DNA of 63,261 nucleotides, filler included, from Candidatus Woesearchaeota archaeon (GCA_003650545.1; 3 parts of 3 records of this genome joined end to end with filler, not necessarily neighbours in it), one strand, 5' to 3'; shown: positions 27,627 through 62,907, counted from the whole stretch's first letter. A program made the numbers and translations. The notes: generated from the letters alone by a model not told the origin.

Positions 27627-27726
27627 NNNNNNNNNNNNNNNNNNNNNNNNNNNNNNNNNNNNNNNNNNNNTTAATTAATTAANNNNNNNNNNNNNNNNNN
27701 NNNNNNNNNNNNNNNNNNNNNNNNNN
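27627..27726. other. Artificial contig-joining linker
   Basis: 44 N + TTAATTAATTAA (stops in all six frames) + 44 N. Confidence 0.97.
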
Positions 27727-53313: not shown

Positions 53314-53413
53314 NNNNNNNNNNNNNNNNNNNNNNNNNNNNNNNNNNNNNNNNNNNNTTAATTAATTAANNNNNNNNNNNNNNNNNNNNNNNNNNNNNNN
53401 NNNNNNNNNNNNN
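53314..53413. other. Artificial contig-joining linker
   Basis: 44 N + TTAATTAATTAA + 44 N; supplies the false stop of ORF 53366-62305. Confidence 0.97.
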
Positions 53414-56400
53414 GCCTAAACCTAAGTCTTCTAAGATCGCGCTGAATTCGGCAAAGCTGCCGTTATTGAATTCCTCTATCCAGGTGTTGTATTCGGCAAT
53501 AATAGCTGCCTGCTCTTCTAATACGCTGGAGCGCCAGGTTTCGGGGTCAGCGCTATCATCAAACCAAATACCCCAGGAACTCTTGAAATTGGCATATTTA
53601 TTATAAAAATCATTAATAAATACAAGTAAATTATTAATATCTAAACTATTTTTCAGATTATCTGCAGCAGTAGAAACGCTATTGGCGTCACTCTGGGAAT
53701 TGCTATCTGAATTTAAAGAAGGCAATAGATCTTGGAGTATGGCATTGAACTCTGCTATTTGCTGCCAGGGGATAAAATAGGTAAGTGAACTTAAAGAAAA
53801 ACTGCTTGCTCCGTTTACTGTGCGCTGCTTGAACGCATTTAAAATTGTTGAATCAGTTATGTCGTGGTCTCCAAACCAACCAAGAGTAGGATTCCATTCC
53901 CTCGTATCAAACCACTTGGCAGTTTTGATAGTTATGTTTCCGCTGTTATCGACAGTAAAATTATAGCGATAATTTACTTGGGGTAAACCCTCTACATACT
54001 CAATAATACCGTTAACATAGCCTGAGTCGCCTATCTTTATAATGCCGCCGGCCATGCCGCGAATTATCCTGGCACCATCAGCCCTGGTATATTCTCCTTT
54101 GCAGAAAAATATTTTATCTCCAAAAGAGGTTTTATTGAAATAGAAATAACTTCCCGCATCGACTACTGAGCCATCCGCTAAGGTATAGTTTGAATTATTA
54201 ATTAAAACTCCGTTAGTTACCGCTGCTGTAAAAGTACCTTTACTATTTCTGGTTAACCTTACTACCGTACCACCGGCTAAAGTAAATCCGTTACCTAAAT
54301 CGATAGGCGTAGAGGTTTTAAGAATCTGAATTGTGCCATAGTATGGAATGTAGGTACTTTTGATCTCCAGCCCAGAAGAAGCATTGATCATTTTTCCGGT
54401 ACTATCTACCTCTACCCACTCAGTCTGGCTTCCGATTTTAACTGAAACCGCTGTTGCCCCTTGAGTCCAGCTACCCTTAATTACAGGTGCCTGAGGGACG
54501 TCAAAGTCAGTTGCAGTAGCGTAAACAGACTCTGAAGCTAAAATATAACCAGTCCAATCATACTTAGCCATAAATTCATCTATTGTTTCTGTAACTACTT
54601 GACCATTATCATTGTAGATTACAGTATGGGCCTGAAGATCAATTTTAAAATTAGCGATATAATGGCCATTGCCGCTGTTTTTATCAATCACGTGAACAAC
54701 CTCAATGTTGTTTAACTCTGCGGCGTCTTCAAAAGATATCTGATAACCCTCTAAGTTCAATTCTAAACCATATTCTTGAGCTAATTCATTGGCTATTAGC
54801 AGGATATCATACATTGAAGTTTCGCCATTTTCATCTATGGGCAGCCTTTCGCTGATTACTTCGGTAGGTATGGAAGGCAGGATTTGTTCTACAACAGAAA
54901 CAGCGCAGTTATACTTTATTGCTTCTGTAGGGGGTCCTCTGATCAAAAGTCCGGCCGAATCTGCATCTATTACTAATTCTTCCTGTTCCTCTAAAATTTG
55001 TCCGGCAGTATAAGGAACATACATTGTGTTTACTCCGGTTGAGCTAAGCCCTGCGGTATTAGAACCTCTTGTATTCCTTAATTGGTTGCGATTAAGCGGC
55101 CTTCTGCTATTTGGAGTATTTACAACCCGCTGGGCCCTTAATAAATTCTGAGTATTTGCCTCTACAACCATCCTTTCGGCGATTTTTAACAATAGCGCCT
55201 CCTGGGCCTGAACGTTTTCTGATTTTTCTAGCAGCGCCCTTTCAGAACTAGTGAGGCGGATGTCTTTAATGGAAATTGTATAATAAGCATCTCCTTCCAT
55301 TCTTCTTCTTGCTAATTCTTCAGTCAGGCCTACGCGCTGAGCCCCCTGGGCCAAATCAACTTTGGAAAGAAGACTAGTTAATATTATCGCTGCCCTGGCT
55401 TTTGCCTTAGGTGAAACTTTTGCAATATTCCAGGCATCAATAAGCCCCTGCACCAAAACAATCCTAGCTCTGGCTGGATCTTTTTCTATTTCAGCAGTAA
55501 CCCTGCTAACTTTATTTGCAAAGTCAAAAACTCCATCCCTTACTACCGAAATTATTTCTATATCTCTATTATTTAACCTGCCCTCAGCTTTTTCTGCTAA
55601 TAACTGGGCTTCGGTCTTTAAAATCGCATCCCTGTCAGCACAGGACAGAAGAATTAAGTCTGTCTTCTCTCCCTTGGGTGATTTGAGAAAATCAATGACA
55701 GCGCTGACGTTATTACGCGGCATATCTTCCATGCTTAACTTTATAGCAACCTTGGAGATTATGCCATCTGGTTCTCGTCTTAATTCAAGTATATTTCCTT
55801 GCTGCACCCCTAAGACTCCTCTAAAACTATCTGTGTAATCCTTTGCAGTAGCGGTAAGCCCAATAAAACCAGCTGCCTGATTAAGTGCTTCGGCATAACT
55901 TATGGCATCTCTAGTTTGGCTTCTTAATGTATCGGCATACAAGCTATTTGATGCATTATGCTTAATCGCCAGAAATCTTCCCCTTGCATTTAATCCTGAA
56001 CCGTCATCTCCGAAAAAGGTATTCGGTAAAGACTCTCCTGTCCTGAGTAAATCGCGGGTGCAGTATCCGGTTAATTCTCCATTTTCATAAACCAAAGAGT
56101 AGGCATCTCCTGGGCCATATTTCATTAAGTCTGCTACGGCATCAAGTAAGAGTTGTAAGTCACGGTCACTGTAATTAATTAATCTGTTTTGCTTTCCCTC
56201 TTCGCTCTTTAGGGCATTACGATATCTACTGATAATTTCATTGCGTGCTGAACTTACGAATTCAAAACTAAGCCTTATTCCATTTTTTACCCCGCTATCT
56301 GTCTGACTTGCCCTATTAACAATAACTGTATCCAAATCCCTTCCGCCTATCTCTGCCAAAGCACAATCCCATAGCGCCTGATCACTCGCTCTGCTTCTTT

Positions 56401-59400
56401 CGATTGATAGGATTTGGCGCCTTGCTGACCACCTTGCAACTGGATTACCTTGGGTTGCCTGAATATCTAATGCTTCCCAGATACCCCTGGTGCTTCCAAA
56501 AACCAGCTGCGGCCCAGCGAGCCCTGCCTGAGGTTCATCTGCGAAAACAAAACTACGGTTGAGTTTTCCTTCGCTGGCTAATCCCATCAGCGTAGTATTA
56601 TCTACAATACTGATACCCTTAATCGGCTCTGTTAATGCGGATAGCTCTGTTTGCCCTTTGTCAATACTAATAGAAATGCGCTCAAAACCCTTTAATCCTT
56701 CTGCGTTTCTGAGCTCTTCGATCTTGCCTGCTTCTGAAGTTCCAAAAACAATTCTTGCTTCAGGATAGCGTTCGCAGATATACCTTGCTACAGGTAAGGC
56801 CATAGAAGTCTTACCCTTACCAGCGTTATCGCTAATAATTAAGCGCACTGCCTCTCCGCGCATAGAGGCCTCATAAGCCCTGAGCATCTCCCAGCCGCCT
56901 CCGATTTGGAAAGCATCCCATTCCCACTCTTTCCCAGCTGCCTGCATATCTGCCTTTAAAGGCAGAACTACCTTCTCAACAAAATCCCTATATGGAGAAT
57001 CAGAAGAAGCAATTGCATCTGTACCTTTTATTTCAACTTGTTTAGCTAAATCAATTATCTCGTTTCCGATGCGTTCTGCCTCTTGCTTATTTATGGCATC
57101 GAAAATTTTATCGGGGTTAGCAAGCATATACTGCTGCGAGGAAACTTCAACTAGCTCTCTGCCCACAGGAATTCCGGCAAGAGAATCTCCTTCATTGGAA
57201 TTTAAGATATCTTCATTCTTATACCCTAACTCTATCAATCTCTGATAATCCCTTAAGGCAATCTCCTGCTTTAAGCTGCGCATTCCGCCGCCATAAGCAG
57301 GAACCAACATAAAAGCTAAATAACCAAGCAGCTGTGCGGTTTGCGGATCTAAACCGGCAGTCTCCATTAAAAGGCTGTCCACGCCAGAGGTAAAGGCAAC
57401 AAAGAAACCTACTGAATCCAGTTGCGCTAGTAAAGCAGCGGTACCACTGCGTCTAATGCTCTGTTGGGTTATCTCGGCAAATGCTGTACCTAATTTTTCT
57501 TTGGTAATTGTATTTAAAATTCCGCGTGCCAGTGTTCTGGGAATTCCGACTAAGCCTAAATTAGCTGAGACCGCTTCTACAGCGTCTCCTATAACCGGTA
57601 CCCCCTTAAAAGTCTCGCCTTTAAACTGGAATACTCTAATAACCGGGCCAAACCATAAACCAAACTTGGGTGACTCTGCCGAATGTAAAGCTAAAGCCTG
57701 ATACCAGGGTAAATCTGTTTCTCCTTTGGGGCCGATAATACCCTCCAATTCTCCTGCCCAGGCTGAATCCCATAATGCCTTGCCAATTGCAAATAAAGGC
57801 CCGATGTAAACGAAGTGCGAGGCTGATAAGAGGCAGTCACCAGCCAAATATTCTGGCCTTGCTGCATATGTTTTAAACCCAACTGCAACTTTGCTTGCCT
57901 GCCTTAATCCTATCCTTAATATTTTATGGTTCTCACCAAAGCTGCCCACCCATTTTGCTGCATTACTAATCCCAGGAGCAGAAGTTCCTAACCAGCCTAA
58001 TAAGCGGCCTGTTCCCTGAGCGCCTGCAGAGAATAAAAATCCTAAGGAAAAGCCTTTTGTAAAACTCTCCATTGACTCGGCCGGAGAAAGAAATCCATCT
58101 CCGCTAATCAAAGAATAGGCATTGTCGCTTACAGCATAAACTCCGCCCCAATACATTCCAATCTCTGCCATGCCGATTAAAGCCCTTAAGGCAGGTGATT
58201 TTATTCCCTGGGTTTCAATTATTACCGGCCTGAGGACTCCTTTTGCAACCGCACGAATTGCAGGTCTGACCCCTGCCTTTACCGCCTGGCCTAAACCTCT
58301 TAAACCAAAACTTACTGCTACCGTACCTGCTTTGGCAGCTGTGCTCACTAAAAGGCTGATTCCTGAACCCACCATAGAAAGGCCACCCACTATGCCAACT
58401 GCATCGCAGATAAGATCTAATCTAGTATAATTTTCAGATAAATATATTCTTGCCCGGCCATTAACAAATCCTTCAGAGTTTTCCGGATAAATCTCTCTGA
58501 CAAATGTCCCCCAACCGGTAAGGCCCCAGGTCTGGCGTATATGCTCTTCAGCAGCGCTAAATTCAAGCTCTCTTACTTCCTGGACTACTTTCATCTCGCC
58601 GCTTTCATTTACCAATAATACATTCACTAATTCATAAGGCTTGTAATCTGTCTCCCAGACCCCGGCATTAAGCCAACCTAATGGACCACCCTGCTCTTTT
58701 GGATCGCCATATTTATCTAAAGACCCTTCGACATGCCTGACCTCAGCAATACCCTGTCTTGACCTTATGTAATTCTTTACATAGTCAGGTACTTCTGATT
58801 CTTTTACTTCCAATCTCTGAATCGAGATATAAGGATCAAAGTATTCAAGTTCGATTCCATATGTGGCGGTATTTAAATTGACAATTATAAGCGCGCTATC
58901 GCCTTCGCTCTCTCCTTCTAAGGTAGATTCGCTAGATTTGTCTGTTAAAATGATTGTATCTTTGTGGCTATCAAAGGTACGGCCTAAGCCGGTAATTTCT
59001 ACTTTGCCATGGACAATATTAGATAAATTTAGGAGGTTGAAATAAGCTACAGCGTCTTCAGGGACAATTATGGAATTGTTTTCATCCCAAGTTAATTTAG
59101 CTGAAGCTTCTTGATATCCAGCTACAGCTTCTAGGGCTGGACTGGCTACCTCCATAGCAGCGCTGAGCTGATTATAAACATCTTCAGGCATAGTTAAAAC
59201 CTCTGTTTCTTCGTTGTATTCATAGCCTTCTACCCCTTGTCTGGCCTTATCTAAAGCCTGATTATATAAAACCTCGTAGTTATTTAGCTCTTCGCTGTAT
59301 TCTCCGCCTGACCAGCCGTTTCCTTCAGAATAAACACCGGCTAGCCTTACTAATTCACTTTGGGCATTAACCCAATTGTCATAATTAGCCAACCACTCTC

Positions 59401-62305
59401 TTGCCTGCGGGGTTAAATTATTCTCTGCTTCATTGAAAGCCACGTCTATTTTATTAATTGCCCCCTGATTATGTTCATTTAACTCATTACCTACAAATTC
59501 CTCAACCTGGCCTATCACTTCTTCGGAAAGATTCTCATTAATCCACTCATTAACTAAAATCTGCTCTTCTTCACTTAAAGGTTCTCCTTGCGGAGCAGCA
59601 AATAACTCATCTTTATTCTGCTGGATATAAGTTACTAGTTCTTCCAGGCTATCTGCATCTAATTTGCCGTGCAGTAATTCATTTTTATGGTGTGCGTCCC
59701 AAAGCGAATAACCAGAATAACCGGCTAATGCTATGCCAATTACTACAAGGGCGATTATTATCGGAAGGACCTCTCCCTGTATCTGCTCCAGTTGGCTTGC
59801 AGTTAAAGGAGTGATTCCCTCTGGCTGCCCGGCACAAAGAATAAATCCTTTGCCATCAATTAAGGCAAACTGCTGAGCAAACTCATCCCTGGTTAAATTT
59901 ACTTCATTACCGTTAGTCTCTATAACTACATTGTGTTCGGTAACTTCTTTTATCACAACATAGTGGCCTTCTCCGGCATTGGGTTCGGTATAAGCAATAA
60001 CCGGCTGGTCAAGCCTAGCAATATCTTCTATGCTCACTAGATAACCATTATACTCAAGGCCTGTACCCTGCTCCAAGGCTAAGGCTACTGCAGCCAAAGA
60101 ATTACCTTCTTCTAAATCAAGGCCTAATGCACTATCAACTACATCTAAGAAATTGGCTATATCTGCGCGAGAAACATCCCTTCCCCCTGTTTCGTCAAAC
60201 ATAGTATCCACGGCATTAACCGGGCAGTCCGCAGTATAAGAAGTAAAGCCCATACTTGTCCAATCATTCCATCTAAATTCCCAACCTGAAGAGCCGATCT
60301 CAAAATTACCTACAAAGTCTCCGTTTTTAATATCTGCGGCAGTATAAAATAAAGGGTTATCGTTGTAATCGATTCTTGCTTCATAGCCGTCCTTGCCCAG
60401 GGAAAATTCTAGGTCTACCGGCCCAACCTGCAGCTCTGGGTTAATATTTCCGCCTTCAAAACTAAGTTCTGCGCCTAAGACTACATTGTCGTTCCACTCT
60501 ACATTGGTCCCGTTAGTCAGCCCTACTGAGGTATTAATATCAAGCGCGCCAAGGTCCAAATCAATCTTTAAGCTAAAGTTATCTATACTTATATCTACAT
60601 TAGCGGTTGTGGCTGCTTGAGTAACAGTATCAACCACTGCGGTTGTTGCAGTTGAGACTGCATCAAAGACGTTTCCTGAGGCTGAATTATAGGTTTGAGT
60701 TTCGGCACTGCCGCCAGTAATTGCTTCCGCTACGCTATCAACCACTGCGGTTGCTGCAGTTTCGACAACATTAACCGCTGTATCCACTGCTGTGTCCACC
60801 AAGTCAACCGCTGCATCTACTACACCATCGACAAAACTGCAAATATTTGACCAACCCCAGGAACCGGTTACTGCCTGCGCTTTTGCTTCAGATACACCTA
60901 TACCAATCCCAGATTGAATAGTTAGGGCGTATCCGCTCCAAAGTGCCTCAAATTCCTCTTTTGATGCGGTTTTTGTTACTCCGTTATCTATATAGGTAAC
61001 TTCCTCAGCAGTAGCCTGAGTAACCACTACATAGTGGCCAGCTCCATTTTCCAGGTTTAAATGGACAATTACAGGTCCTTCTATGCTGGCTAATTCCTGA
61101 TAGGTAAGCTCAACTGCGCTCAGGTCTAAGCCATATTCAGCAGCAACCTGCTGAATGCCGTACAGGGAAGTTTCGCCATTTTGGGTATAAATGGCTAAAT
61201 CCTGGGCTAAAATATCCGGGCTTATATTAAGAATTTCTGATAGGGCTAAAACTGCGCAATTATAGTCTAATGTGGGGGGGTCATTATTGTGTAGAGTTAT
61301 GGAATCTATGGCTTGTGGTACAGCAGAATCATCTGTGGATACTCTGCCTGTTTGAGCTTGATTTATGCTTGAATTTTGTTCTGGATTAGCAAGAATAAGG
61401 CCGCTTTCACCTGTATCTTGAGAAGGCGAATCGGTAGGAAGTGCAGCGTGATCGTCATATGGGACCCCCTGCGGAGGGCCTTGGCTAGGTGGCTGCTCCC
61501 AATCTATTTTTGATTTTCCGATAAAGGTCTTAATAAAAGATAAAAGCCGGCTATTTTCCAGCCAGCCTTTAATTGTCTGTAATACAAAATTCCCAATTCC
61601 CGGGTTATTTTCCTGATTTTGGCTATTTTCAGAATTAATTACCCCAAATCTAATTATATGCCTAAAAATATGCTTTAAAGGCGGAATTATCACTTCCAGG
61701 CCGAAAGCCGAAGCCTTAATCTTGTTCTCGCTAGTAGGCTCAGCTTCATCTTGGCCCTCTTGAGCTTGTTCGCTACCTATTGAGTTTGCGCCCGTATTCT
61801 CAGATCTGCGTAACGCAATATTATTTAATTTATTTAATAAAGCTGTTTTTATATCCTGGAGGGTTTCTTGAAAAATCTCTATTATGCTGATATTGGTATT
61901 GGCCTGATTATCTATATTTTGAGCCGTTTGTACCATAATATCCGTATCACAAACCGTATCAATAACTTCGCTATATTCATTATTTTCAACAGGTTCTATT
62001 GAAATAGTATCTTTGATTGACCTGAAAGGTTCTCTATACTGTGGCAAATTGCGGGATTTTTCGTCTAAGATAAGATTTGTTTCAGCATGAGCTGAAGGTA
62101 ATAAAAACGAAGATATAGCTTGATATATTTGCCATAAGAATTGACCTGGACCAGATGAGGCTTGCTGTTGGTAGGTATTGCCTTCATCAGGAAGAGAATA
62201 AGTATAATCAGCCCTGGCTGCCCAAGTTACTTCAGAAAAGGTAAAAACTCCGACAATTGTCAGCGCGATTATTTTGACCCAAATTTTTTCTCGCCAATTA
62301 ACCAT
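53414..62305 (-). CDS. Bacterial giant secreted protein, 3'-truncated at contig end: three C39 peptidase-like domains, membrane helices, SecA-like ATPase
   Basis: SD gagg; signal peptide MVNWREKIWVKIIALTIVGVFTFSEVTWA; three C...GHY units (C350/H424, C694/H781, C2467/H2548); SecA-like DAFQIGGG, NAGKGKT, FADEPQ, GLTATA, QGAQRVG; runs into the N-linker. Confidence 0.88.
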
Positions 62306-62589: not shown

Positions 62590-62907
62590 TTATATTGAGG
62601 ATTTTTTGGCTTGACGGTATTTGCGCATATAATCGCGCATATAGTGCCGGCGTTGGGTTTTTCGTTTTTTTGCGTATTCTTTGAGGTGCTCTTTATGGGT
62701 CTTTTTCCAAAGCTGAATATAACGGCGCCTAGTCTCTTTCCAGAAGCGCTCCTGGCCTAAATATTTAAAATAACCAGGGTTATTCTTACGCCATTCGCGA
62801 ACATTCTTATGTTGTCTTAATTTTTGGCATTCCAGTCGAGAACAAACCTTTTGTGAAGGATGGTATTTATTCGGGGTGAACTCTCTTTGACAAATTAAGC
62901 AACGCAT
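62590..62907 (-). CDS. Small basic hypothetical protein with CxxC...CxxxxC zinc-binding motif
   Basis: MRCLICQREF...KVCSRLECQK followed by Arg/Lys/Tyr-rich helices. Confidence 0.7.
   Translation of the reverse strand: MRCLICQREFTPNKYHPSQKVCSRLECQKLRQHKNVREWRKNNPGYFKYLGQERFWKETRRRYIQLWKKTHKEHLKEYAKKRKTQRRHYMRDYMRKYRQAKKSSI

Follow-up and report, generated by a model that had tools for sequence, protein, structure and literature searches.

C39 peptidases in exporters, toxins and giant proteins

C39 peptidase domains and double-glycine leaders are the textbook pair of the PCAT/AMS exporters. In these exporters (LahT150, 6mpz; PCAT1, 4ry2/6v9z; ComA, 3k8u) the enzyme is fused to an ATP-binding cassette (ABC) transporter, the leader sits at the N-terminal end of another, small peptide, and known C39 enzymes cut after Gly-Gly/Ala/Ser. 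In this work we analysed a giant open reading frame (ORF) in a stretch of 63,261 nucleotides (the window, filler between the joined contigs included) from Candidatus Woesearchaeota archaeon (GCA_003650545.1), in which enzyme and leader-like motif lie in one chain. Three C39 units (a, b and c) are each followed by a leader-like tail (1, 2 and 3); the leader stands 21-23 residues past the domain, and the part corresponding to the “core peptide” has hundreds to thousands of residues. We lean towards the reading that this C39 cassette cuts its own chain after the downstream G-[GAS] at sites 1 and 3, with unit b being more likely a latch.

Peptidases built into long proteins are known from other systems. 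The cysteine protease domain (CPD) has a caspase-like fold and cuts after Leu. The CPDs of MARTX and large clostridial toxins share with the giant protein the in-line peptidase and the combination of a constant peptidase with a variable cargo, and the same holds for the releasing peptidases of polymorphic toxins (Zhang et al. 2012, PMC3482391). The main text of that survey lists a C39-like domain, Tox-PLC39, as a toxin domain and describes no cis double-glycine leader for it. StbD-CT and Cpe1 (Nhan et al. 2026, bioRxiv 10.64898/2026.05.07.723447) are likewise C39 domains inside a large secreted protein. According to the main text of this preprint, StbD-CT, a C39 toxin, cleaves its own chain in cis behind the Gly-Gly of an adjacent linker, depending on both the Cys and the Gly-Gly, and the cleavage requires reducing conditions. 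In StbD the site is upstream of the domain and precedes the catalytic Cys by 25 residues; once released, the C39 domain is itself the toxin, which cuts GyrB and ParE. In the giant protein the site is downstream and has a full leader-type helix, and the variable cargo comes after the cassette.

Giant proteins of Omnitrophota provide the other close comparison: a C39 domain beside the signal peptide was proposed to cut them (West-Roberts et al. 2023, bioRxiv 10.1101/2023.11.21.568195). In the main text of that paper, information on the cleavage points is lacking, and whether the bacterial giants are one chain or cut pieces is an open question. As described there, these giants share the layout found here, namely a signal peptide, an N-terminal C39 domain, membrane helices, a divergent SecA-like nucleoside triphosphatase (NTPase) and sometimes a C-terminal C39 domain. 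The protein of this study differs in being much smaller (at least 2,964 residues as assembled), in a SecA-likeness without hidden Markov model (HMM) support and in having candidate cut points defined. A 2026 preprint reports a C39 architecture cluster among long Omnitrophota proteins, and cleavage is unmentioned in its main text. No account of an in-line C39 domain followed by its own cis leader was found in the main texts covered; the nearest are the StbD and giant-gene preprints. Judged from sequence comparison and predicted structures, the new element here would be C39 self-processing with a downstream leader-type site as a portable cassette, a view we hold with some confidence. With a similar, modest degree of confidence, we regard the giant ORF as a membrane-anchored protein of the giant type described for Omnitrophota, carrying three C39-plus-leader cassettes.

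C39 units and leader-like tails of the giant protein

Translating the minus strand of positions 53366-62305 gave 2964 real residues, followed by X from a run of N, and the start of the ORF agrees with the start in relatives. All positions were scored with a position-specific scoring matrix (PSSM) trained on 55 homologue motifs. The features which carry the argument are as follows.

53414..62305, minus strand: whole giant ORF, residues 1-2964; C-terminus lost at the end of the contig (G000:C38)
60920..61288, minus strand: C39 unit a, residues 340-462; Pfam 64.9 bits (E 8.4e-18); C350, H424, D441
60860..60919, minus strand: leader-like tail 1, residues 463-482, ending VSEAKAQAVTGS (471-482); predicted cut between S482 and W483; PSSM rank 1
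59837..60256, minus strand: C39 unit b, residues 684-823; Pfam 36.6 bits (E 4.9e-9, profile positions 42-122 only); C694 (in DCP), H781
59771..59836, minus strand: leader-like tail 2, residues 824-845, ending LTASQLEQIQGE (834-845); PSSM rank 4
54539..54937, minus strand: C39 unit c, residues 2457-2589; Pfam 18.6 bits (E 0.0017); C2467, H2548, D2566
54470..54538, minus strand: leader-like tail 3, residues 2590-2612, ending FDVPQAPVIKGS (2601-2612); predicted cut between S2612 and W2613; PSSM rank 5
60710..60745, minus strand: extra double-glycine-like site, VVDSVAEAITGG followed by Ser, residues 521-532 (a true Gly-Gly); PSSM rank 2; off the cassette distance
55061..55099, minus strand: extra candidate site, LNRNQLRNTRGS followed by Asn, residues 2403-2415; PSSM rank 3; Thr at -4

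On the whole protein, the Pfam family PF03412 (Peptidase_C39) scored 104.7 bits in three stretches. The curated cut-off of this family is 22 bits, and unit c scanned alone falls below it. Searching unit c against residues 327-485, which include unit a, gave 35% identity (E 1.4e-15) in an alignment that runs through GSW, and by this comparison unit c is a paralogue of unit a. A subfamily profile built from an alignment of homologues (A1, see below) scored 173.8 bits for unit a, 73.7 for unit b and 76.9 for unit c, with matches extending into the tail. The three papain-like C39 units proposed by the initial annotation were thus confirmed, by Pfam for units a and b and by paralogy and the A1 profile for unit c. 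Their signature motifs are YNCAV at 348 with GHY at 423, DCPV at 693 with GHY at 780, and YNCAV at 2465 with GHY at 2547. All three units have the Cys and His columns, and the Asp column is kept in unit a (D441) and unit c (D2566). In unit b, Thr797 stands at this column, in which Asp is conserved in at least 90%, with Glu796 adjoining it, and a Pro follows the catalytic Cys.

AlphaFold2 (AF2) models were obtained for units a and b, with a mean predicted local distance difference test score (pLDDT) of 85.4 and 82.6 respectively. Foldseek matched the unit a model to PCAT1, LahT150 and ComA (E 2e-6 to 3e-5; root-mean-square deviation ~2 A over ~120 residues), while the unit b model was matched to PCAT1, StbD-CT and ComA at E 6e-5 to 2e-3; the StbD-CT structures 8ssk and 8ssm are among the fold matches. 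As modelled, units a and b have a papain-like C39 fold, the same as in the PCAT/AMS enzymes, and they share the Cys/His/Asp columns of these enzymes except for the Asp in unit b.

The tails end at nearly the same distance from the domains: G481-S482, G844-E845 and G2611-S2612 are located 21, 22 and 23 residues past the conserved Leu of the last strand of their units. A string search of the translation found the motif after each C39 unit, with G481, G844 and G2611 numbered as the initial annotation had given them. At site 1, the residues at -12, -7, -4, -2 and -1 are V, A, V, G and S, in agreement with the double-glycine leader pattern. Site 3 has F, A, I, G and S at these positions. Site 2 has L, L, I and G at -12, -7, -4 and -2, and G844 is aligned with the Gly at -2, but E845 at -1 breaks the requirement for G, A or S. 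In the PSSM scan, sites 1-3 took ranks 1, 4 and 5 among 2952 positions. Ranks 2 and 3 were taken by the two extra sites, the first of which sits inside the V/D/T/A-rich helix region 483-560, and the second is about 50 residues upstream of unit c, again off the cassette distance.

In the AF2 models the tails are ordered. The pLDDT of the unit a domain is 94-98, and in 10-residue blocks the tail reaches 97 and 98 in unit a, and 95 and 88 in unit b. Directly after the Gly the values drop, to 66 and then 51 past G481, and to 54 past G844. Both tails form a short helix of two turns (positions -10 to -5), with a strand bridge at -3/-2. In LahT150 the helix of the bound leader extends over -4 to -11, and because the predicted helix and bridge resemble it, the tail is predicted to have the shape of a bound leader, with the helix-then-extended form known from PCAT/AMS. 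Of the suggestion that a leader-like helix docks in the C39 groove, the models bear out a tail helix ordered up to the Gly in units a and b; that this helix lies in the leader groove of the peptidase is what we infer from them.

Conservation of the cassette and its proposed self-cleavage

An exhaustive HMMER search with residues 1-900 as query gave 274 proteins (E <= 1e-3), of which the best 150 served as homologues. Their 166 homologous C39 domain copies were ranked with a query cut off ahead of the tail, which kept the motif from influencing the order. It turned out that among ranks 1-20, the motif h-x-G-[GAS] ended 17-28 residues after the anchor in 14 of 16 usable domains, and over all ranks it was present at the cassette distance in 62 of 147 usable domains, compared with a background of 9% (299 of 3320) at random positions of the same proteins. 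In a first count, most occurrences of the motif (48 of 58) ended 20-26 residues past the anchor, with a mode of 22. The post-domain Gly, whose conservation the initial annotation had left to an alignment of homologues, is therefore conserved, most clearly in the nearest usable domains. A search for related loci with the single protein returned 3, all of which are common ABC exporters of proteobacterial type I secretion and lack the motif.

The consensus of the 62 motifs (their selection required G, A or S at -1) has L at -12 (38 of 62), S/T at -11, E/Q at -8, M/A/L at -7, a hydrophobic residue at -4 (58 of 62; I 37, L 13, V 8), G at -2, and G (26), A (25) or S (11) at -1. On sequence, this is the classical double-glycine leader, the same consensus as in PCAT/AMS (L at -12, hydrophobic at -7, I/V at -4, G at -2, G/A/S at -1). 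The rows of alignments A1 (37 rows) and A2 were picked for carrying the motif (36 motif-bearing homologues), so the invariant Gly in them follows from the choice of rows, and the unbiased count is the domain-ranked test of 166 copies. By that test, the C39 domain with a downstream leader motif is a conserved cassette in the relatives.

These counts bear on whether flexible linkers contain the motif by chance. It is both short and degenerate, its loose form is not enriched in the giant protein (4 against 2.5 +/- 1.6 in shuffles, P 0.24), and the PSSM scores stay within the range of shuffles. It is the position, not the count, that pairs the sites with the domains beyond chance, because the spacing equals that of the homologues. 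All three units, and 14 of the 16 usable domains among ranks 1-20, have the motif at a fixed position against a 9% background, and an origin by chance is extremely unlikely.

The alignment A1 also marks where conservation ends: similarity stops at G-[GAS], and the downstream segments are unrelated. In P0003, which also has the N-terminal module of the giant protein, the site is followed by a SpvB/TcdB/RHS (Tc/Rhs-type) module. In P0006, a match to a subtilase prodomain begins at residue 442, directly past the site at 441, and P0121 has a dockerin after the site. In other relatives there are Gly-rich or amphipathic segments, or many segments without known family. It is conceivable, with chances we put slightly short of even, that a mobile self-excising cassette marks the cut points of Omnitrophota giants and has diverged here into the cutting copies a and c and the non-cutting latch b.

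The catalytic residues were examined in the same homologues. Cys and His are both kept in 100 of 149 scored domain copies, two of which are units a and c of the giant protein, and in 48 of 64 motif-carrying copies. In short proteins, 27 Cys/His-bearing copies have a membrane helix directly after the domain. The motif and the catalytic residues are not lost together in a clean pattern of covariation, and many rows scored as lacking the Cys are N-terminally truncated. Two small groups were also observed. Degenerate units with Cys replaced by Val and His by L/V/M/N/E keep TKGT followed by FF at the site (P0019, P0023, P0048, P0057, P0080, P0083), and this group is probably a single lineage. In P0109, P0110 and P0144, Ser replaces the catalytic Cys, and the His and the G-[GA] site are kept.

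Such tails might also be pseudo-substrates which fill the leader groove permanently; they could serve as a latch, autoinhibitory or structural, or hold the C39 unit as a peptide-binding module, with the protein staying whole. An ordered and docked tail in the models is equally expected for a latch; binding-only, non-cutting C39-like domains exist, for instance that of HlyB (3zua and 8dck are among the fold matches); and the degenerate relatives still keep TKGT at the site in spite of their lost Cys and His. Against this stand the Cys and His kept in 100 of 149 copies and in 48 of 64 motif-bearing ones, the small residues at -2 and -1, which are needed for cleavage and not for binding, and the end of conservation exactly at the bond with unrelated cargo next to it, which is the pattern of a processing boundary. 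Taking both sides into account, we consider an uncut protein with pseudo-substrate tails unlikely.

From the homologue counts and the AF2 models, sites 1 and 3 are best read as self-cleavage sites, a reading supported in silico. In the proposed mechanism, the tail would fold back as a short helix into the leader groove of its own C39 unit, and the enzyme would cut after G-[GAS], parting the cassette and everything upstream of it from the variable downstream segment. A cut between S482 and W483 would detach a head made of the N-terminal signal module and unit a, while a cut between S2612 and W2613 would set free the C-terminal segment, which has at least 352 residues and no known family. Unit b would be docked and remain uncut, or be cut slowly, as a latch that ties this C39 unit to the membrane helix 846-868.

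Cleavage at unit b is doubtful because of the Thr at the Asp column and the Glu at -1. If all three sites were cut, G844-E845 included, the products would be 1-482, 483-845, 846-2612 (with the membrane helix, the NTPase region and unit c) and 2613-end. In favour of this, G844 aligns with the Gly at -2, tail 2 fits the consensus with L at -12, T at -11, Q at -8, L at -7 and I at -4, the tail is modelled like tail 1, and the site holds PSSM rank 4 of 2952 despite its Glu. On the other hand, Glu at -1 is set against G, A or S in 62 motifs (which were selected for these residues), the known enzymes cut after Gly-Gly/Ala/Ser, Thr797 replaces an Asp conserved in at least 90%, and a Pro follows the catalytic Cys. 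Cleavage at all three sites is in our estimate improbable. The idea of the initial annotation, that cis-autoprocessing cuts the giant protein into subunits, accordingly holds up for sites 1 and 3, which have a conserved cassette, and (for site 1 as modelled) an ordered tail, and is doubtful for site 2.

Cutting in cis is what we infer for sites 1 and 3; the sites might instead be cut in trans by another copy of the protein, by a different C39 unit, or by a free-standing PCAT exporter for which the motif is an export signal. The two extra motif matches ending at 532 and 2415 (PSSM ranks 2 and 3) are off the cassette distance and, if used, would need trans or non-adjacent cutting. Against this, a spacing held at 20-26 residues would be difficult to account for if domain and site were not related in cis, StbD-CT cuts in cis, and the giant protein has no ABC exporter domain: Pfam found neither ABC_membrane nor ABC_tran in it, and the exporter models of NCBIfam match the peptidase part only, with 13-33 bits against cut-offs of 500-853. 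Cleavage in trans is highly unlikely on these grounds.

Self-cleavage at sites 1 and 3 has several observations to contend with. The PSSM scores of sites 1-3 (12.2, 9.9 and 6.4) do not exceed the maxima of shuffled sequences (mean best 8.3, 95th percentile 13.0), and site 3, with the lowest score of 6.4, has Pro at -6 and -9. In the sequence of all three units, the usual oxyanion Gln six residues before the Cys is absent; in the subfamily, Asn stands immediately before the Cys in 59 of 162, and the role of the oxyanion Gln was questioned by the LahT150 work. Among the homologous domains, 25 bear Cys and His and are followed by neither the motif nor a membrane helix. Part of the AF2 confidence in the tails follows from input alignments that were picked for motif-bearing rows. 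Furthermore, a Sec signal at the N-terminus would place units a and b outside the cytoplasm, and the C39 domain of StbD needs reducing conditions.

If self-cleavage at sites 1 and 3 is correct, the cassette supplies exact predicted bonds, S482-W483 and S2612-W2613 here and their equivalents in dozens of relatives. Giants could then be divided into likely mature parts for structure prediction and proteomics, and C39/double-glycine biology would extend from small exported peptides to the in-chain processing of very large proteins. On the mobile-cassette reading, Omnitrophota giants would be true cellular polyproteins whose pieces are predictable from sequence, and one module would free its cargo in some copies and anchor a domain at the membrane in another. 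Besides, the cassette might serve as a compact self-cleaving tag of already understood specificity.

Other regions of the protein and origin of the contig

The remaining features of the giant protein and of the window are listed below.

62081..62305, minus strand: conserved N-terminal module of ~75 residues, residues 1-75; a signal-peptide-like helix at 8-26, then FSEVTWAARADY, then ...SFLLPSAHA
59702..59770, minus strand: transmembrane helix, residues 846-868, directly after tail 2; Kyte-Doolittle 2.49
57071..58420, minus strand: Gly/Ala-rich hydrophobic region, residues ~1296-1745; hydropathy peaks 1.1-1.9
54986..56968, minus strand: P-loop NTPase region, residues 1780-2440; GKGKT at 1829, DEPQ at 1923
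53414..54469, minus strand: C-terminal segment, residues 2613-2964+, at least 352 residues, incomplete at the contig end; no family match by translation and family searches
1-27626: contig C17
27727-53313: contig C18
53414-63261: contig C38, which carries the giant ORF with the C39 units

Several segments of the protein are related to membranes. A clear membrane helix follows site 2, and the region ~1296-1745 probably holds further membrane segments, judging by its hydropathy. Site 1 is followed by an acidic helix region that is rich in Val, Asp, Thr and Ala and has modest hydrophobicity. For 62 relatives, we compared the 18-mers after the site with control 18-mers, and they differed neither in mean hydrophobicity (H 0.049 against 0.058, p 0.35) nor in hydrophobic moment (muH 0.226 against 0.219, p 0.58). 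Membrane-active new N-termini were rejected as a family trait, since post-site 18-mers are no more hydrophobic or amphipathic than controls. The initial annotation had taken the first two released N-termini to be membrane-active; in this protein only site 2 is followed by a clear membrane helix, the segment after site 1 is modest in this respect, and membrane activity is not a property of the cassette in the 62 relatives.

The P-loop NTPase region had been called a SecA module. A language-model look-alike search in the ESM Atlas placed a SecA_DEAD cluster first (score 0.91, 185 shared features). PF07517 (SecA_DEAD) had no Pfam match at E up to 1 in residues 1300-2450, and none when contig C38 was searched in six frames; a sequence search of the PDB found no SecA match, and a homologue search with residues 1780-2440 returned only the protein itself. 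With the look-alike on one side and negative Pfam, PDB sequence and homologue searches on the other, the SecA module as such was not upheld; a SecA-like nature of the NTPase region, which fits the reports on Omnitrophota giants, is kept as a lead.

The N-terminal module has the consensus MxNWRExIWxKIxALTIxGVFLFSEVTWAARxD, about 25 variable residues, and LWQIYQxIxSFLxPxAxA. It heads at least 18 otherwise differing proteins of 70-2686 residues, and from its sequence it resembles an export or anchor signal specific to the lineage. Among the named relatives, both of the C39 cassette and of the N-terminal module, nearly all belong to Candidatus Omnitrophota; the few exceptions are on contigs of 3-4 kb. 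Searching residues 1-520 against 300 genomes of the phylum of the bin gave no match. With the A1 profile, 16 of 400 other genomes of this phylum were matched, all in open frames of 147-241 residues, and these matches comprise the domain only (profile positions within 2-128), without a tail. Because the matches in the phylum cover the C39 domain alone, the lineage of the bin itself, as searched in these genomes, is without the cassette. These domain-only matches fit the Woesearchaeota label of the bin, as do the lack of a SecA match above the cut-off in the bin and the genome size of its relatives (0.6-1.6 Mb). The G+C content of contig C38 is 41.6%, compared with a contig mean of 36.2% (standard deviation 4.1), which is the 6th highest of 69 contigs, and the contig ranks 9th of 47 in tetranucleotide distance. 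Contig C38 is probably a mis-binned fragment of an Omnitrophota genome.

The three contigs were joined by runs of N with a TTAATTAATTAA stop linker, at 27627-27726 and 53314-53413, and the second of these joints lies outside the giant gene. As the contigs were joined artificially, the apparent convergence of the giant ORF with a 7989-residue ORF of contig C18 is an artefact of joining. This second ORF is complete (29263-53232, plus strand), has its own signal-peptide-like start and a strong GC skew (0.24-0.40), and had no C39 match. Upstream of the giant gene, a very basic ORF of 105 residues (62590-62907, minus strand) carries CxxC...CxxxxC near its start; no family was assigned to it. Elsewhere, short contigs bearing the N-terminal module are labelled Woesearchaeota, Thorarchaeota or Colwellbacteria, which hints at a recurrent co-binning of Omnitrophota fragments with small-celled archaea and bacteria of the candidate phyla radiation (CPR).

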